DNA of 64,000 bases from a phage: the sequence record NC_104726.1; one strand, given 5' to 3'. Each line of letters starts with the position of its first letter. The first letter of the stretch is position 1. Positions 4,419-64,000 of this stretch are shown here, piece by piece. A program made the position numbers and the translations under genes. Below the pieces are notes generated by a model, which saw only the letters and a program-made list of their open reading frames with translations, searched no databases and was not told the origin of the DNA.

Positions 4419-4799
4419 CTAAAATGCAGTCCGAATCCAGACAAGGTTCTTATCTGCCCAATCATAGAGGCAAGTCATTGCACTATTGAATTGCTCACAC
4501 GGAGGATAATCTTCTTCCATCTGACGCATAGCAGAGCCTTGTGGGTAAAGCTCCCGTGCTGCAAACCACGCGTCGTAGTCATCAACGGTGTCGAAGTAGT
4601 ATACAACATCCTCCAACTCAGGATCGAACTTTGAACTATCAGGATCCAGTTGTTCAGGGAACTTGGAGCGTAACTTGCCAGCCACAATACTTGCCAACTC
4701 GCTAACATGCTTATTGTCCCACTCCACTAGCTTCCCGTCTTCAGTGATGCGTCCTAACCACTGATCATGAAGGTCAACTGTTGTCTTCCACCGGGCCAT
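4419..4799 (-). CDS. hypothetical protein (126 aa)
   Basis: ATG start, operon context, acidic protein. Confidence 0.45.
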   Translation of the reverse strand: MARWKTTVDLHDQWLGRITEDGKLVEWDNKHVSELASIVAGKLRSKFPEQLDPDSSKFDPELEDVVYYFDTVDDYDAWFAARELYPQGSAMRQMEEDYPPCEQFNSAMTCLYDWADKNLVWIRTAF

Positions 4800-57969: not shown

Positions 57970-58774
57970 TTAGATAAAACGCTTGAACATAGAAGGTGAT
58001 GAGATTGATGGAATCACACAAGGAAGTGCTACCTCCTCTTTCTCCAGGAAATTAATCGCAGAAGCTACACAGTCTGCCCAGTCGTCTTTTCTGTTAAATG
58101 TTGATCTTTCCCCGTTGAATTTTTCAAGTTCAGTCAGAAATGCTTCCAGAGTATCAGGATGGAAACTGGATTTTACAATTCTCACCATTCCTTGTTGGGC
58201 AAGATTGGCAAAAGGTGAGAACCTTGTCAGTTTAGATTTGTTGGAAGGCATTGGGTCTTCTTCAACCCTAAACCCTTCGGCGAGCAGGGATCTGGAGGAG
58301 GTTAAGAACTCACTCTTACCTGCCTGCCCTGGGTCCACAGAGAAGACGATTATGCAATCATCACCATCGAACTGCGCCTGTTTCCTGATGATCACATCTC
58401 GTTCACCAGCCTTTTTACAGAACTTGCCTTCCAATCCTGTGGAATACCTCCCGTCATCCACGTTCTCAGGACAATAATCACCTGACAGGTAATAAAAGCC
58501 GTCGCTATCTTTACTTACCTTAATACTGGCAGTAAAGTCAGGAAATTTATTACCGGAAGTTCTCTCGGTTCCTGCCTTATCCCATGCCCTGCAAGATACT
58601 GATCCAAGGGGTACTCTATCGGCATCACGAAGGAAAGATCTTTGAAAATAGTTTGCACCCTCAGGCTTTGCAAACCAGTTACCATGGAGAAGCTGAGCTT
58701 TTTCCAGCTCTGGTAGACCTTCGAGGAAAGCAAGGTATTCTGGGTTGTCTCTCAAACAGACAGGATTATCGAAT
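57970..58774 (-). CDS. terL: terminase large subunit, exon 3 (nuclease domain)
   Basis: AQLLHGNWFAKPEGANYF and KDDWADCVASAINF are terminase nuclease-domain motifs; in-frame TAA at 58777-58779 bounds the 5' side; no ATG at the ORF start. Confidence 0.7.
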
Positions 58775-59753
58775 CCTTATATTCAAAGGTGGTCGCAACA
58801 CCACCCTCCGCACCATTACGTGCCGCTGCATGTTACCATGCAGAGTAGACTATATCACCACCCATCTCAGGGTGCTTCGCTTTTCGAGCGCCATAGGCTT
58901 GCGCCCTACTCCCTCTCGGGATAGTCGTTGAACTACATTACCAATCGTAATTGTTTGAAATATAGGTGTAAGTCTTACGGTCTTTTATTCCTTTAACAAC
59001 ACTAAAACTTACGCCCCACTTCTTAGCTATTTTATTTACACACAAAACCCTATCACTAAGATCCTCGCAGATACCTATTATCTTGTGCTCACTTATCCTA
59101 TTAGAGGTTGGCACTTTTCTAAAGTTAAACTCTTTAGAAATATCTGGGTATACTGAGCCATTCTTTATACCACTTACAAGTGGTTGATTGACACCAAACA
59201 TTTCACAAATGTCTTTTACCCTTGCACCTTGCTCTAACAGTCTACATATTTCAAGAGCAGTGGCATCATCTAGGGACCTGTATTTATTGACATAGTCCTT
59301 TTTAAGTCCCATTTCATGAGCATGATGTGTGTTTTCCTCAGGTGTTGTCCACTCAAGGTTCCATGCGGCGTTATTCAACTTATTGCCATCAAGGTGATTT
59401 ACTTGAGTTTTCACGCTGGGATTATCATTATCAACAAAAGTCATAGCAATCACTCTGTGAACGAGCACTTGGAACTTTTTACCGTCCTCGCACAAAGTTA
59501 CCATAGCATAGCCAGTCTTTTTCTGCACATTAGGATGGAGGAATTTATTAGAATACAGACTGTAAATTCTGCCATCGTATGTAGCACAATAATGATTGTA
59601 GCCTAAAAAGCCTAAATTTTTCATTTCAAACATCTCCCTACTACAGGTTCGGAAGGGTAATTATAGCTGCTGATTGTCCGTTTAGCAATCGGATTTTCCA
59701 GCAATTAACGAAGTTATTCGACGTGCATTTCTGCACGAAGCCACTATCATTTA
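58775..59753 (-). mobile_element. group I-like intron 2 in terL (979 nt), carrying an HNH endonuclease ORF
   Basis: Begins UAAAUGAUAGUGG after exon-terminal U, ends ...UAUAAGG; core-like blocks GTTCAACGACTA (58920-58933) and AGATATAGTCTACTCTG (58841-58856) on the minus strand; boundaries inferred from frame restoration. Confidence 0.55.
58938..59633 (-). CDS. HNH homing endonuclease (intron-encoded), 231 aa
   Basis: Motif VNHLDGNKLNNAAWNLEWTTPEENTHHA; C-terminal helix-turn-helix-like repeats; ATG 59631-59633. Confidence 0.75.
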   Translation of the reverse strand: MFEMKNLGFLGYNHYCATYDGRIYSLYSNKFLHPNVQKKTGYAMVTLCEDGKKFQVLVHRVIAMTFVDNDNPSVKTQVNHLDGNKLNNAAWNLEWTTPEENTHHAHEMGLKKDYVNKYRSLDDATALEICRLLEQGARVKDICEMFGVNQPLVSGIKNGSVYPDISKEFNFRKVPTSNRISEHKIIGICEDLSDRVLCVNKIAKKWGVSFSVVKGIKDRKTYTYISNNYDW

Positions 59754-60073
59754 ATGGTTGCGCCTATGAACGAGAATGACAACGGTCTTGGCTTGATCTC
59801 TACGCCAAGTCCGTTAACCGTGGTGTATTTCTCTATCAACTCTTCTTTAGAATCTCCCCATATAAATTCACCGTCGCGTCGGATAAAATATCTTTTCTTA
59901 CCGCATTTCTCCGGATCTGGATACCCTTCATCGTCCAACCACCATCTAACCAGTTTGGCAAGCATGTGTTCTGAATCTGGGTTACAGCTGATAACCATTC
60001 TTGATGGATACTTTGACTGAGATCGCAGACGAGACATCAGATAGTCTATCTGCTCCCATTCGAATTGTGTCGT
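59754..60073 (-). CDS. terL: terminase large subunit, exon 2
   Basis: Encodes ...EWEQIDYLMSRLRSQSKYPSRMVISCNPDSEH...FIGAT; bounded by in-frame TAG (60074-60076) upstream and TGA (59747-59749) downstream. Confidence 0.6.
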
Positions 60074-60390
60074 CTATGTTCGGGCAAGGTCGCTAGTCTT
60101 GCCCCGCCATTTTTCAGGCAGCTGCATGTCTCCATGCAGACCAGACTATATCTTATAAGCGACAACAACCGCTTACCCTCCCGTTTCGAATCGCTTGATT
60201 CTACGTCTTTCGACTAGTCGTTGAACGTTCATCCTCTCGGATGCTTCGCTGCGGATTATCTAAATTAACACACTGTTACCATACCTTCGATCTCTCTTCG
60301 AAGCCTCTATCATGTTACCATGACAGGTTGGTGGTGTCAATAATAAAGATTTCCCCGCAATTAGGGAGGTTTTACGAGAGCTACAAATTA
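60074..60390 (-). mobile_element. group I-like intron 1 in terL (317 nt), no ORF
   Basis: Starts UAAUUUGUAGCUCUC right after the Walker B codons, ends ...ACAUAG; contains AATTGCGGGGAAA, AATCCGCAGC, GTTCAACGACTAGTC and AAGATATAGTCTGG blocks on the minus strand. Confidence 0.6.
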
Positions 60391-60816
60391 ACCCTCATCG
60401 AAGCAAACCATGGTGTACTCAAGCCCTTGATGGTTAAGCTTATCTTGTACATACTCCATGTGGCAGTATTTTACAACAGCTCCCTTTTTGCTTCTATCCC
60501 ACTTACCAGTGTTAGGATCAAACCGTGGAAAAATGAACTTATGATCCTTCTCTCTGAACTTTGGCTTAATGTTTTCAGGCAGATCACTATAAATAGCTAC
60601 TGCTTTAGGCCATAGTCCACCCTCACCCTCCAACTGTGGAGTTGTTCTTCGGAACATAACCACAGAGCTGTGGGGGTCATCAATAATTTTAAGCGGCATC
60701 AACTGCAAAAGGAACGACTTGCCAGACCCTGCGGCACCGCCGATTACCAAAATATCTGCATCGTTTTCGAGGATCATCTTCTGCTTTTCAGAACACGGTC
60801 CGTAAATCTTAGACAT
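60391..60816 (-). CDS. terL: terminase large subunit, exon 1 (ATPase Walker A/B)
   Basis: Walker A GGAAGSGKS, Walker B MVCFDEG; ATG 60814-60816 with AAAGGAGAGAGG upstream. Confidence 0.75.
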
Positions 60817-61103
60817 TAACCTCTCTCCTTTGGAAACAGTGTTCTAATATAGTCTTGCAAAATGATCAATTTAGCTCTATCATTGCTACAAGACAGATTA
60901 TTATCCCTCATAATGCCAGAATTCACCGCATCTGGCGCACCTTTCTTTAAAGGTATAGCTTTAGCAGGTGGTTTCATGGCACCTTCCGGGGGTTTAACAA
61001 TCAACCTTCCTACATCTGGAGGGTCAATCTTGTATTCTTTCTCAACACTGGTTGCACACCCACATAATAACAAGCACGCAATAAACAGTGTAGCAACTCT
61101 CAT
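60816..61103 (-). CDS. o-spanin (outer-membrane lipoprotein, Rz1-like)
   Basis: Signal/lipobox-like FIACLLLCGC, Pro-rich DPPDV...KPPEG...KPPAKAIP, C-terminal PKERG resembling the lambda Rz1 C-terminus; start overlaps the i-spanin stop. Confidence 0.6.
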   Translation of the reverse strand: MRVATLFIACLLLCGCATSVEKEYKIDPPDVGRLIVKPPEGAMKPPAKAIPLKKGAPDAVNSGIMRDNNLSCSNDRAKLIILQDYIRTLFPKERG

Positions 61104-61919: not shown

Positions 61920-61996
61920 TGGTCTCCACGGAGTGATTCGAACACTCGACCTCCTGATCCCAAATCAGGCGCTCTACCAAGCTGAGCTACGCGGAG
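61920..61996 (-). tRNA. tRNA-Pro (anticodon TGG)
   Basis: Manual cloverleaf: acceptor CTCCGCG/CGTGGAG, anticodon loop TTTGGGA, T-loop TTCGAAT, encoded CCA. Confidence 0.75.
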
Positions 61997-62007
61997 TATT
62001 TACTATT

Positions 62008-62082
62008 TGGTGGCCCTGGGTGGAATTGAACCACCGTCTGGCGATTATGAGTCGCTTGCTTGAACCTTCCAGCTACAGGGCC
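62008..62082 (-). tRNA. tRNA-Met or Ile2 (anticodon CAT)
   Basis: Acceptor GGCCCTG/CAGGGCC, anticodon loop CTCATAA, T-arm GGTGG-TTCAATT-CCACC, CCA. Confidence 0.7.
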
Positions 62083-62083
62083 T

Positions 62084-62159
62084 TGGTGCTGATGGCAGGA
62101 CTTTAACCTACAACCTATTGATTACAAATCAATTGCACTACCGATTTTGCTACATCAGC
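62084..62159 (-). tRNA. tRNA-Thr (anticodon TGT), non-canonical T-loop
   Basis: Acceptor GCTGATG/CATCAGC, anticodon loop TTTGTAA, T-loop TTAAAGT (A where C56 is expected), CCA. Confidence 0.6.
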
Positions 62160-62164
62160 AAAAA

Positions 62165-62263
62165 GGTGCTAGGTGATGGAATCGAACCACCTATGTATTC
62201 AACGACTACCTCGTCTATTTTCAGGATTAAAAATCCTCGCCCTTGCCAAAGGGCTTACCTAGC
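62165..62263 (-). tRNA. atypical 99-nt tRNA-like gene (anticodon ambiguous)
   Basis: Perfect 7-bp acceptor GCTAGGT/ACCTAGC, D-stem GCCC/GGGC, T-arm GGTGG-TTCGATT-CCATC, but 47 nt between D and T arms and no encoded CCA. Confidence 0.4.
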
Positions 62264-62361
62264 TCAGTATGTTGACCATGTTGCTAGTCGGCGATGACGA
62301 CTGTAACATTTGATAATCCGGTTCTGCTTCCGACTTTCGCTTAATTACAAGGTCAACAATG

Positions 62362-62452
62362 TGGCGGAGAGTAATGGAATCGAACCATCATCGAGTCATC
62401 CTCAACGGGACGGTTTTCAAGACCGCTTGAGCACCATTGCTCCCTACCCTCC
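62362..62452 (-). tRNA. tRNA-Ser (anticodon TGA), long variable arm
   Basis: Acceptor GGAGGGT/ACTCTCC, anticodon loop CTTGAAA, T-loop TTCGATT, CCA. Confidence 0.7.
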
Positions 62453-62566
62453 TTTATAAATAATACTGATAATGACACTGATTTTCGAGCAGTTAGTGAC
62501 TAGTATAAACGACGATAAATATCAATGCCATTATCTGTATTATTTATGCATCTAAAAATATAAATT

Positions 62567-62653
62567 TGGTGGGGAGTGGTGGAGTCGAACCACCCGAGTC
62601 GCAATGACAATAGATTTACAGTCTACACCGCTACCTCTACGGGATAACTCCCC
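62567..62653 (-). tRNA. tRNA-Tyr (anticodon GTA), long variable arm
   Basis: Acceptor GGGGAGT/ACTCCCC, anticodon loop CTGTAAA, T-loop TTCGACT, CCA. Confidence 0.75.
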
Positions 62654-62657
62654 AATT

Positions 62658-62732
62658 TGGCACCCCGTACTGGACTCGAACCAGTGTCAACGGCTTAGAA
62701 GGCCGCTGCTTTATCCACTAAGCTAACAGGGC
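62658..62732 (-). tRNA. tRNA-Arg (anticodon TCT)
   Basis: Acceptor GCCCTGT/ACGGGGT (two G-U pairs), anticodon loop CTTCTAA, T-loop TTCGAGT, CCA. Confidence 0.7.
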
Positions 62733-62790
62733 ACTGGGTGGCTTTCTTTTACACCTTAGCCGCCAGAAAAGGTGGGAGACCATGTTTACA

Positions 62791-62819
62791 ATATTACACT
62801 GTTAAGCAAAGTTTGTCAA
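62791..62819 (-). promoter_or_regulatory. near-consensus sigma70-like promoter (TTGACA-N17-TAATAT) upstream of the tRNA cluster
   Basis: Minus-strand -35 at 62814-62819, -10 at 62791-62796, AT-rich upstream tract; about 60 nt upstream of tRNA-Arg. Confidence 0.55.
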
Positions 62820-62828
62820 GAAAATATT

Positions 62829-63167
62829 TTAACTATTGCCAACAGGCTGTATTTCTGTGGTGAATGGCATAAAAGGTGCTGGTTTTTCAGCCTCTTCTAC
62901 TACCACCTCTTCCTCTTCACCAAACATCTCATCATATTCTTCCTGCATTCGGTCTGCCTTATCAAGAACATACTCTGCAATGCTTTGACGAATATTTTGT
63001 TTGGTTTTCGGGTCCAACATCAGCTCTCTTAAAACTTTGTGAGCTTCTGGAACCATCGCTATAAAAGATTCCTTCATATCAAGGATGTTCTTCTCTAGCT
63101 GAATGGCGTTGGACTCCTCTTTCAGAGGTCTGCCTCTACGGCGACGCTTTTTAGTTGTATCCGCCAT
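62829..63167 (-). CDS. small basic-N/acidic-C protein, possibly DNA-binding (~112 aa)
   Basis: ATG 63165-63167 with GGAGGAAA upstream; N-terminus MADTTKKRRRRGRP; track start at 63287 lacks a ribosome-binding site. Confidence 0.45.
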   Translation of the reverse strand: MADTTKKRRRRGRPLKEESNAIQLEKNILDMKESFIAMVPEAHKVLRELMLDPKTKQNIRQSIAEYVLDKADRMQEEYDEMFGEEEEVVVEEAEKPAPFMPFTTEIQPVGNS

Positions 63168-63195
63168 GTTTCCTCCATTATCACGTGATAGGTGG

Positions 63196-63224
63196 ATTTT
63201 ATCATAGCAAATACTGATTGTCAA
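63196..63224 (-). promoter_or_regulatory. near-consensus sigma70-like promoter (TTGACA-N17-TAAAAT)
   Basis: Minus-strand -35 at 63219-63224, -10 at 63196-63201, about 30 nt upstream of ATG 63167. Confidence 0.5.
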
Positions 63225-63511
63225 GTTCGCCGCAGGGTGGTATTCCCTGCGACTTGTCCAGCGTCCTGGACCAGCAAGACCCAACAAGTGGGTTACCAGA
63301 GCCCATTACCGCACTTTGGCTCGACCTTATTACAGGTTGGCTGGGGTCACATCGTCATGTGCTGGCTGCCCCTACCATTTTAAGTGTGGTACACTATCAA
63401 GCCCTCTAAGGGGAACTCAGCCTTCTCCGAACCCTGTTTCAAAGCATCCGGAGATAAAGCCATCAAATTCATCTTTAAATTGGATATTCATCATGATACA
63501 CGAAAACAACC

Positions 63512-63754
63512 TCATTGTAAAGCACAAATAAATAAAACATACTTAATTTGTTTGTTATCAGGCTCAGGGTAGAAGTAGAAGATCTTGCTATCACCGATCT
63601 GAACACCACCATCCCAACAGCATAGCCCATAACCCGTATTCATACAAGCTAAGTCGTTGGCAAAATCTATTGCATCATCCAGTGCACGAAATTCACCTTC
63701 ATCTTCTAAATAATCCTCATTCATGGAACGAAAAACGAGCTTAACCTTAAACAT
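63512..63754 (-). CDS. hypothetical protein (80 aa)
   Basis: ATG 63752-63754; acidic, Cys-containing. Confidence 0.4.
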   Translation of the reverse strand: MFKVKLVFRSMNEDYLEDEGEFRALDDAIDFANDLACMNTGYGLCCWDGGVQIGDSKIFYFYPEPDNKQIKYVLFICALQ

Positions 63755-63830
63755 AGCATTACCTGTAGACCTCGTAAGTTAAAATTGCATCACATCATAT
63801 TGCAGATCTTATCAGGTAACACTATTTTTG

Positions 63831-64000
63831 TCAACAGATTCCGGCCTTATACTTCCTGTCTGCGTATTCTTTAATCGCAACCTCATCTGCATTAGTGACC
63901 AGGTCTTCAAAGTAACCCTCAAGCTCCTCGTCAATGTCAGGAGACCAGCTCTTTTTCCTGTCAGTGTGAATTGCAGACTTGTTGAACTTATTACAGTTCT
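63831..64000 (-). CDS. partial CDS, 3' end only (continues beyond window)
   Basis: Open frame from the window edge to TGA at 63831-63833 encoding ...KSWSPDIDEELEGYFEDLVTNADEVAIKEYADRKYKAGIC. Confidence 0.3.
   Translation of the reverse strand, partial: NCNKFNKSAIHTDRKKSWSPDIDEELEGYFEDLVTNADEVAIKEYADRKYKAGIC

Follow-up and report, generated by a model that had tools for sequence, protein, structure and literature searches.

Small self-cleaving ribozymes such as twister, pistol, hatchet and hammerhead are common in phages, where varied contexts are typical for them. Further structured RNAs encoded by phages, i.e., GOLLD and ROOL, were reported to locate often near islands of transfer RNA (tRNA) genes, whereby neither their function nor a protein partner is known (PMC12286853). 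Here, a spacer next to a phage tRNA cluster was followed up computationally, namely positions 63225-63511 (287 base pairs, bp) of a 64,000-nucleotide (nt) stretch of sequence record NC_104726.1, which is referred to as the window. An earlier interpretation made from the letters of the window (the sequence-only reading) had claimed this spacer as a candidate structured RNA, which is supported by the match of a covariance model and by compensatory changes in three of its helices (P1, P2 and Px, see below). The structured RNA does not fill the full 287 bp as claimed: it locates inside the spacer, from 63231 to approximately 63413 on the minus strand, and was shown to belong to a family of compact structured phage RNAs that is widespread and apparently undescribed. 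Judged from the aligned sequences, selection was shown to act on the RNA fold, as compensatory and G-U changes keep the helices and the junction has a sequence that is frozen from one phage family to the next, and the fold was shown to have been exchanged among unrelated virulent phages. No description of the element was found in Rfam 15 or in the searchable literature, whereby a catalogue of approximately 10,000 candidate viral RNAs from 2023 (PMC10690425) may include it.

The spacer region is 100% identical to that of Escherichia phage JLBYU08 and 99.8% identical to that of phage rV5 (Vequintavirus). A sensitive BLAST search with the spacer against 50,697 phage records matched 804 records, 118 of which are rV5-like phages covering the whole query. 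The other approximately 690 are T4-like phages (Tevenvirinae), in which only query positions 153-195 (window 63302-63344) were matched with 90-97% identity. Scans for exact patterns of the degenerate core yielded 24 additional metagenomic and 38 additional viral loci, and a scan with a free hairpin loop gave more. The degenerate core had no match in 185,579 bacterial and archaeal species (one genome each) and the spacer had no BLAST match in E. coli genomes, by which a host-derived sequence or a mimic of one was ruled out. The members identified comprise T4-like phages from at least eight genera with two architectures of the 5' domain (T4-type and JS10-type), the rV5-type phages, a divergent rV5-like lineage (L052, L056, L096), a group C of Klebsiella KP591P1-like and gut phages of approximately 46 kilobases (kb), Pseudomonas phage pf16 and the unplaced contigs L070, L077, L097, L098, L100 and L103. 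In T4, the 43-nt core locates just downstream of denV, and the element of the window (142 nt) can be aligned lengthwise with the element found 5' of the gene vs.8 in T4-like phages, including flanking hairpins of differing sequence.

The common fold was derived first by inspection and then described by a covariance model (R1) with 21 base pairs, whose seed consists of nine T4-type sequences only. R1 recovers every member group, and all helices of the family form in the window copy. Read in gene sense, helix P1 abuts a helix of 3-4 bp, Px, which encloses hairpin Pa together with a junction strand, and variable hairpins follow after Px. P1 carries either a small hairpin P2 (T4-type, rV5 and L056) or a larger domain (JS10-type). 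The junction strand (CGAGCC-NNWGNGC-GGUAA, 18-20 nt) is near-invariant across phage families and possibly forms a mini-hairpin of 3 bp; the junction of the window, CGAGCCAAAGUGCGGUAA, fits this pattern, with differences only at loop positions that are variable elsewhere. The parts of the element in this phage, whose helix coordinates and sequence were verified against the letters of the window, are the following:

63231..63372, minus strand: the structured RNA element, which starts with the 5' strand of P1 and finishes with the 3' hairpin; 142 nt, 58.5% GC
63293..63379, minus strand: match of covariance model R1 (P1, P2, Px, Pa and junction J), 56.9 bits, E = 4e-12, model positions 1-97 (full length)
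63302..63344, minus strand: ultra-conserved core of 43 nt, CCAGCCAACCUGUAAUAAGGUCGAGCCAAAGUGCGGUAAUGGG, the part shared with the T4-like records
63372-63369 with 63346-63343, minus strand: P1, GGGG/CCCC, enclosing the internal loop CAGCCAG and hairpin P2
63361-63357 with 63352-63348, minus strand: P2, CACAU/AUGUG, loop GACG, inside P1 (P1 region 63343..63372)
63342-63339 with 63303-63300, minus strand: Px, AGCC/GGCU, closing the three-way junction (region 63300..63342)
63337-63334 with 63327-63324, minus strand: Pa, hairpin ACCU-GUAAUA-AGGU (region 63324..63337)
63304..63323, minus strand: junction J, CGAGCCAAAGUGCGGUAAUG, near-invariant in members except for four loop positions
63320-63318 with 63310-63308, minus strand: possible mini-hairpin GCC/GGU in J
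63293-63279, minus strand: variable hairpin V1, ACCCA/UGGGU, deleted in L064
63271-63256, minus strand: variable hairpin V2, GUCCAG-GACG-CUGGAC, with a wobble-compatible change at 63257
63231..63251, minus strand: 3' hairpin CGCAGGG-AAUACCA-CCCUGCG, present in rV5-types and absent in L052/L056
63373..63413, minus strand: 5' extension specific to Vequintavirus, 41 nt, with hairpins CCCU-UAG-AGGG (63412-63402) and AGUGU-ACC-ACACU (63395-63383) followed by AAAAUGGUA
63425..63453, minus strand: upstream hairpin CUCCGGA...UUCGGAG, taken from a minimum free energy (MFE) fold prediction and absent in L056

Covariation in relatives, which the sequence-only reading had named as a check, was found in two comparisons, one of phage families and one of two lineages within Vequintavirus. 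Within 48 distinct sequences, 92.6% of the modelled cells pair as compared to 77.0% upon shuffling and 34-47% with slid partners, and the covariation score amounts to 0.371 as compared to 0.119 for shuffled alignments (none of 500 reached the observed value) and 0.032-0.103 for slid partners; an earlier set of 45 sequences gave similar pairing numbers. For P1, all five modelled pairs covary (e.g., GC:27, AU:9, CG:9), with GGGAA/UUCCC or GGGAG/CUCCC in T4-types, GGAAC/GUUCC in L052/L056 and, as checked by hand, AAAGG/CCUUU, AAAGC/GCUUU or AAAGA/UCUUU in JS10-types. All three modelled pairs of Px covary likewise (e.g., CG:29 GC:8 UA:7 AU:3), and its hand-checked variants comprise CCC/GGG, CUGG/CCAG in L042-L044 and ACC/GGU versus ACU/AGU within group C. 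For Pa, one pair covaries (AU:46, GC:2) and three pairs are constant; the helix is ACCU/AGGU but was found by hand to be GCCU/AGGC in CGG4-1. Another hand-checked example is the paired deletion of a C and a G in L014 and L023; all these hand-checked helices are independent of the model. G-U pairs are frequent (e.g., GU:15 at one Px pair) and one of them is invariant. As G-U pairs would become A-C mismatches on the opposite strand, the strand of the RNA is fixed as minus.

The loop of Pa occurs as GUAAAA, GUGAAA, GUAGCA, GUAACA, AUAAUA and GCAAAA, and judged from these sequences it seems better described as GNRA-like. The idea of this loop serving as codon or anticodon (a GUA/GUG valine codon or a mimic of the tRNA-Tyr anticodon) was weakened, as members with AUAAUA, GCAAAA, GUAGCA and GUAACA exist. 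A pseudoknot between the internal loop of P1 or the loop of P2 and the tail after Px (CCAG/CUGG in rV5, UGAGG/CCUCA in L056, CGGA/UCCG in group C) was rejected as being at chance level, since such matches of 4-5 bp were equalled by 22-100% of shuffles.

For the copy in the window, the proposed fold has an energy of -46.6 kcal/mol as compared to -52.5 for the MFE structure. All five inverted repeats quoted in the sequence-only reading are present in the sequence, and four of them correspond to hairpins of the minus-strand RNA (P2, V1, V2 and the 3' hairpin). As for the fifth, GAGCC..GGCTC, a real helix is improbable, since in relatives GGCU pairs with AGCC (Px), with compensatory changes. The spacer had further been described as richer in GC than its surroundings, which holds for 63225-63416 (55.2% as compared to 44.1% for the whole window; only 0.17% of windows of 192 nt are as GC-rich) but not for 63417-63511 (38.9%). 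In RNA sense, the latter stretch is the AT-rich 5' third, which leaves 63225-63416 as the part that is truly GC-rich. A scan with Rfam cmscan, likewise named as a check, gave no match for 63225-63511 even at E <= 10 (Rfam 15, 4227 models), and the homologous T4-like and group C elements have no match in Rfam 15 either.

The strongest evidence for selection on the rV5 copy comes from sequence comparison with the lineage of L052 and L056. Between rV5-type phages and this lineage, P1 changes from GGGG/CCCC to GGAAC/GUUCC and P2 from CACAU/AUGUG to CUACG/CGUAG, whereby the core is unchanged and the GACG loop is identical. Despite this divergence of P1 and P2, the 5' extension (63373-63413) is near-invariant between both. 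At the places of V1 and V2, L056 possesses hairpins of other sequence. Within rV5-types, eight sequences were surveyed, and the substitutions inside the element are confined to loops, linkers and wobble-compatible positions: they affect three junction-loop positions (63317, 63316 and 63313) that are also variable family-wide, as well as linkers and the loop of the 3' hairpin, and in addition a single pair each of Px (G-C) and V2 (A-U) has become G-U. For the upstream hairpin (63425..63453), two substitutions in L062 (at 63432 and 63429) both preserve pairing, and it is uncertain whether this hairpin is part of the RNA. In L052/L056 the core was observed to be flanked by a direct repeat of approximately 22 nt, CCCUUAGAGGGCUUGAUAGUGCACC and CCCAUAGAGGGCUUGAAAGUGCUGG (L056 about 4615-4640 and 4745-4770); V1 and V2 of the rV5-types look, from their sequence, like diverged versions of the second of these repeats.

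The position of the spacer and its neighbouring genes are as stated in the sequence-only reading, and all genes around it are on the minus strand. The layout of the locus is the following:

63806-63834, minus strand: promoter P75, from a consensus scan, the likely origin of transcripts running through the element
63512-63754, minus strand: open reading frame (ORF) 75, the gene 5' of the spacer in transcription order
63417-63515, minus strand: ORF of 32 amino acids, MRLFSCIMMNIQFKDEFDGFISGCFETGFGEG, of doubtful coding status, covering the AT-rich 5' third
63196-63224, minus strand: promoter P74, sigma-70 (TTGACA-17-TAAAAT), 11/12 consensus matches, directly 3' of the element
62829-63167, minus strand: ORF74 (start at 63167), the next gene 3' of P74
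62819-62791, minus strand: tRNA promoter, between ORF74 and the tRNA genes
61920-62732, minus strand: seven tRNA genes, called by ARAGORN, none of them at the element

The 3' hairpin ends 6 nt before the -35 box of P74, which starts at 63224, and the element would, judged from this arrangement, be absent from transcripts starting at P74. The 3' hairpin lacks a U-tract, being followed by GCGAACUUGACA, and was not called as an intrinsic terminator; none was called on the minus strand across 62600-64000. The gene of a tRNA-Arg locates 574 nt downstream of the element on the same strand. The earlier statement that the spacer holds no convincing ORF was mostly right, with the exception that the ORF of 32 amino acids is annotated in several relatives (e.g., phages ime and MiataMamis); its start overlaps the stop of ORF75 (ATGA). 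Its frame is broken by a stop after DEFDGF in L056 and hence not kept in that divergent lineage. Within this ORF, a block of 21 nt (AAAGAUGAAUUUGAUGGCUUU, 63456-63476, minus strand) is near-identical in the rV5-type and L052/L056 lineages despite diverged flanks, with a single A/G difference found in L019. In L056 the promoter of the RNA follows directly after this block, and in rV5 the block locates inside the doubtful ORF; it might serve as a site for regulation, or a short peptide might end here (KDEFDGF).

Several observations concern the surroundings of the spacer. The product of ORF74 has an N-terminus, KKRRRRGRPLK, of AT-hook-like appearance and an acidic C-terminal tail, and its homologues are found within the tRNA arrays of other Vequintavirinae (e.g., PVP-SE1 gp081). 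One gene under the spacer query is labelled 'putative regulatory protein' in the record of JLBYU08. At 62165-62263 (minus strand), ARAGORN called a tRNA of 99 nt with a four-base anticodon (atcc) and no amino acid, which reaches 35.5 bits with the Rfam tRNA model and is without annotation in the rV5 record, which shows a gap there; it could be intron-containing, degenerate or unusual. Just beyond the studied region, the gene of the rV5 large terminase is annotated as three joined pieces (ORF64ABC, rV5 58027-60872, L002 1-167), which suggests intervening sequences. Furthermore, 18 records named 'Campylobacter phage' (MG065635-MG065677, host C. jejuni) are 98-99.5% identical to this region of an E. 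coli rV5-like phage, and their labels or samples look suspect.

In T4-like phages the element has a fixed place. Records of five other genera leave it unannotated in a gap of 130-170 bp directly 5' of the vs.8 homologue, whichever gene is upstream. The core ends 61-72 nt before the start of vs.8, or 85-180 nt where an insertion or a second tandem copy is present; in one exception (L017), the start of vs.8 is found 468 nt downstream, with another reading frame opening right behind the element. Vs.8 itself, a P-loop protein with a relationship to the ATPase of the terminase, is uncharacterised, and was reported in a preprint of 2026 to activate Avs2 and to be toxic together with this immune sensor (EcAvs2; bioRxiv 10.64898/2026.04.30.721860). 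In the T4T record (HM137666 64840-64892; L001 2501-2553) vs.8 is annotated to start 37 codons too early, whereby the RNA element becomes translated as the N-terminus of Vs.8; the true start, as seen in homologues and in further records of T4, is MRTFLTG. No Vs.8 homologue is encoded in the window, and Vs.8 is absent from all non-T4 members. A complete JS10-type element together with vs.8 was observed in phage Av-05 (Vequintavirinae; L024 / L038, about 108 kb), the protein being 88-91% identical to that of T4, and this cassette of RNA plus vs.8 looks like a recent transfer between phage families. The tRNA region of Av-05, which is far from its element, gave no match with R1, nor did the tRNA regions of PVP-SE1 and KP591P1.

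Outside the T4-like phages, most members locate 47-577 nt from a tRNA cluster on the same strand, on either side of it (47-363 nt for members other than the window copy); the distance is 1184 nt in L051, and several short contigs have no tRNA on the stretch examined. In group C the element is 207-363 nt upstream of tRNAs, and in L070, L054, L077 and L051 it is downstream of them. A sigma-70 promoter with 11/12 consensus matches was found approximately 40 nt upstream in L056, just before the 5' extension, with a second promoter after the element. The copy in pf16 occupies the whole 116 nt that separate the stop codon of an acyl-carrier-protein gene from an annotated Rho-independent terminator, after which a new promoter follows, and in L097 a terminator is placed 12 nt past the element. 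The genes next to members without Vs.8 have no protein in common; judged by eye from sequence only, their products resemble an endolysin, an HNH endonuclease, a tail fibre and a tape-measure protein.

Tandem copies occur in L098 and in Karamvirus-type phages, where the second copies are divergent (second copies: L083 9099-9187, L079 5085-5173, L082 about 130-260 on the minus strand, L098 884-969). In the divergent copy of L082, a 5-bp hairpin, GAGAC/GUCUC, replaces the junction strand and a longer hairpin replaces Pa, so that by its predicted helices this copy keeps the architecture without the sequence. Group C shows further peculiarities. Its element is closed by an 8-bp stem, GUUGUGAC/GUCACAAC, and belongs to a non-coding array (L072 5000-5830, minus strand) interspersed with repeated long hairpins with stems GGUAAGAGCAYU / RGUGCUCUUACC, which resemble sites of processing that would separate the RNA modules preceding the tRNAs. 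Approximately 170 nt upstream of the element a frame, GCAAACGAAGAA(G/A)TGTATCTGGCAGTAGCCTAA (L072 5618-5650, minus strand; also in L060, L075 and L081), encodes ANEE(V/M)YLAVA*, akin to the E. coli SsrA tag ANDENYALAA. The surrounding unit of 180 nt (L072 5533-5712) matches larger phages with 78-86%, among them Salmonella SKML-39 (160 kb), Klebsiella Bullseye (158 kb) and Salmonella SapYZU01 (88 kb). It has only a weak match to the permuted transfer-messenger RNA (tmRNA) model of Rfam (21.7 bits) and was not called as tmRNA by ARAGORN; from its sequence it may be an unrecognised phage tmRNA-like RNA.

Considering these findings, the element was suggested to be a stand-alone RNA that binds a conserved partner, an explanation which, taken jointly with the conserved fold, is regarded as somewhat more probable than its negation. 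According to this model, the RNA would be made by read-through from P75, onward into ORF74 and the tRNA genes, and the invariant junction of the self-contained module would most likely bind a conserved partner, be it a protein (of the host or the phage), an RNA or a small ligand. The element would in this case be a stable processed RNA made alongside the tRNAs, possibly released by nucleases acting on tRNA precursors. Control of one particular neighbouring gene would be improbable; the varied contexts (5' leader, 3' untranslated region, own promoter, tandem copies, both sides of tRNAs) suggest that the function is probably intrinsic and not bound to a neighbour. In T4-like phages, where the same module forms part of the leader 5' of vs.8, an effect on this gene may be added, as stand-alone and cis roles are compatible. 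Several points weigh against this explanation. The conserved partner is a postulate, and transcription, processing and stability were derived solely from consensus scans for promoters and terminators. Ending 6 nt before a promoter, the element could simply be the 3' untranslated tail of the ORF75 message. Covariation is silent on the mini-hairpin, the pairs of which never vary, and on Pa, the pairs of which nearly never do; double-change pairs were reached by 18 of 500 shuffles and extra pair types by 347 of 500, two of the five measures not being significant. Moreover, the pair counts derive from alignments fitted to the model, which favours the model; these were used because MAFFT misaligned P1 and P2 across types. 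The thermodynamic signal, finally, is modest, and as computed it would be weak evidence: over the 287 nt, the MFE z-score of the minus strand is -2.5 and that of the plus strand is -1.8, whereas the 142-nt element reaches -1.6. Since thermodynamics is weak alone, the claim that the structure exceeds chance rests on the comparative evidence.

Of the other explanations, one proposes a cis-regulatory leader, riboswitch-like or protein-binding, the junction of which would sense a ligand or protein and control translation or read-through of the downstream sequence (vs.8 in T4-like phages and ORF74 plus the tRNA operon in rV5). Its best argument, and at the same time a further point against a stand-alone role, is the strict spacing of 61-72 nt to vs.8, which is kept in nearly all of the hundreds of T4-like phages regardless of the upstream gene and resembles that of a cis-acting leader. 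Invariant junction nucleotides combined with variable peripheral stems, tandem copies as some riboswitches have them, and the position upstream of tRNAs in group C fit the same idea. In the window, however, the strong promoter P74 separates the element from the next gene; in pf16 and L097 a terminator directly follows it (in pf16 with a new promoter thereafter), four members carry it downstream of tRNAs, the neighbouring genes are unrelated, and inspection, the only check made on this point, revealed neither an alternative pairing of the Shine-Dalgarno (SD) sequence nor an expression platform. A leader function in this sense was judged unlikely. An equally doubtful suggestion is that of a new self-cleaving or processing ribozyme, which would cut the polycistronic messenger RNA/tRNA transcripts that host it. 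Compact size and a frozen core would suit a ribozyme, as would the many unrelated contexts (5' and 3' untranslated regions, between tRNAs, in tandem), but the element matches no ribozyme family of Rfam 15 even at E <= 10, no cleavage site can be named, and its approximately 30 invariant nucleotides exceed what most small ribozymes need.

A further explanation considers the rV5 copy a non-functional leftover of a recombined T4-type vs.8 cassette which has since lost vs.8. The window does lack a Vs.8 homologue, Av-05 documents for a relative that such transfers happen, and at the place of the 345-bp spacer of rV5, other Vequintavirinae carry tRNAs and genes amounting to 3-5 kb. Yet P1 and P2 were remodelled by compensatory changes between Vequintavirus lineages with the core intact, substitutions avoid paired and junction positions, the L056 lineage has its own promoter, and several unrelated phage groups hold copies without Vs.8; the leftover idea is therefore disfavoured and regarded as highly improbable. 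Least credible of all is a site acting at the DNA level (operator, origin or endonuclease target) or a small protein-coding gene in place of an RNA. Overlapping ORFs of 63 amino acids on the plus strand and 34 on the minus strand exist, one of them annotated in MiataMamis, and the T4T annotation reads the element as part of Vs.8. Against this, the G-U pairs are strand-specific, the compensatory changes include the paired deletion in L014 and L023, and in L042 a stop interrupts the sole frame that is open in JS10-types. Other T4-like records leave the stretch unannotated with vs.8 starting downstream, and the variable sites show no periodicity of 3 nt.

An extremely conserved core, helices that evolve by compensatory changes and a spread from one phage family to another are, in combination, the signature expected of an RNA in contact with a conserved component of the infected cell. 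That the element constitutes a new functional RNA class of defined molecular activity (a riboswitch, a self-cleaving ribozyme, or an RNA that acts as decoy or scaffold towards a conserved part of the machinery for translation, tRNA or RNA decay in the host), present in T4 and in at least four unrelated groups of virulent phages, is put forward tentatively, as a possibility falling short of an even chance. If true, the invariant three-way junction would be a binding or catalytic site and the RNA a mobile module exchanged independently of genes. T4 is among the best-studied viruses, and an element of approximately 135 nt with a near-frozen core of 30 nt has stood unannotated between its denV and vs.8. 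The partner or activity, once identified, could reveal a new riboswitch, ribozyme or host-takeover RNA, and could explain why structured RNAs are placed beside phage tRNA genes, as it is the case for GOLLD and ROOL. As a practical outcome, R1 lets annotators avoid spurious ORF calls at this place, and the start of vs.8 is corrected.

Compared with known RNAs, the element is no tRNA, as neither ARAGORN nor the Rfam tRNA model identified a cloverleaf at its position. In group C, the element shares a non-coding array with the unit carrying the SsrA-like tag frame; a relation to tmRNA was rejected, as local alignment to E. coli ssrA was no better than shuffles (z <= 1.4), a tRNA-like domain is lacking and ARAGORN called no tmRNA. 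T4 encodes two RNAs of similar description, species 1 (rnaC) and species 2 (rnaD), stable RNAs on the strand of the tRNA cluster which are annotated as 'small, stable RNA' and for which no function is known. The T4 element differs by its position upstream of vs.8, approximately 6 kb from both, and identity with them was rejected, as R1 run with filters off over T4 69.5-74.5 kb gave at best 7.9 bits and no hit on rnaC or rnaD. With twister, pistol, hatchet and hammerhead the element would by analogy share the nature of a compact, context-independent module scattered in phage genomes, the difference being that it matches none of the Rfam ribozyme models. The element resembles riboswitch aptamers in having several stems around a junction, unpaired nucleotides that are invariant, peripheral stems that vary, occasional tandem copies and a covariation-supported fold, and the T4-like copies have the fixed position 5' of one gene that is expected for a riboswitch or 5' leader. 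A consistent position in the 5' untranslated region is, however, confined to the T4-like phages, and many copies are not 5' of any ORF. No expression platform was found, whereby pairing of the SD region in T4-like phages was inspected by eye only and no minus-strand terminator was called across 62600-64000. GOLLD and ROOL are likewise encoded by phages, strongly structured and near tRNA islands, and the element locates in or beside tRNA clusters in most non-T4 members. Both differ from it in size, with 500-800+ nt and Rfam models of their own as compared to approximately 90-190 nt, and in their unrelated folds; their Rfam models have no match at the element, and nothing suggests that it forms oligomers. 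By analogy, GOLLD and ROOL may be seen as its nearest analogues in kind, with the genomic context as the only feature shared, and the proposed new class was rated to fall within a known kind, that of the orphan structured phage RNAs.

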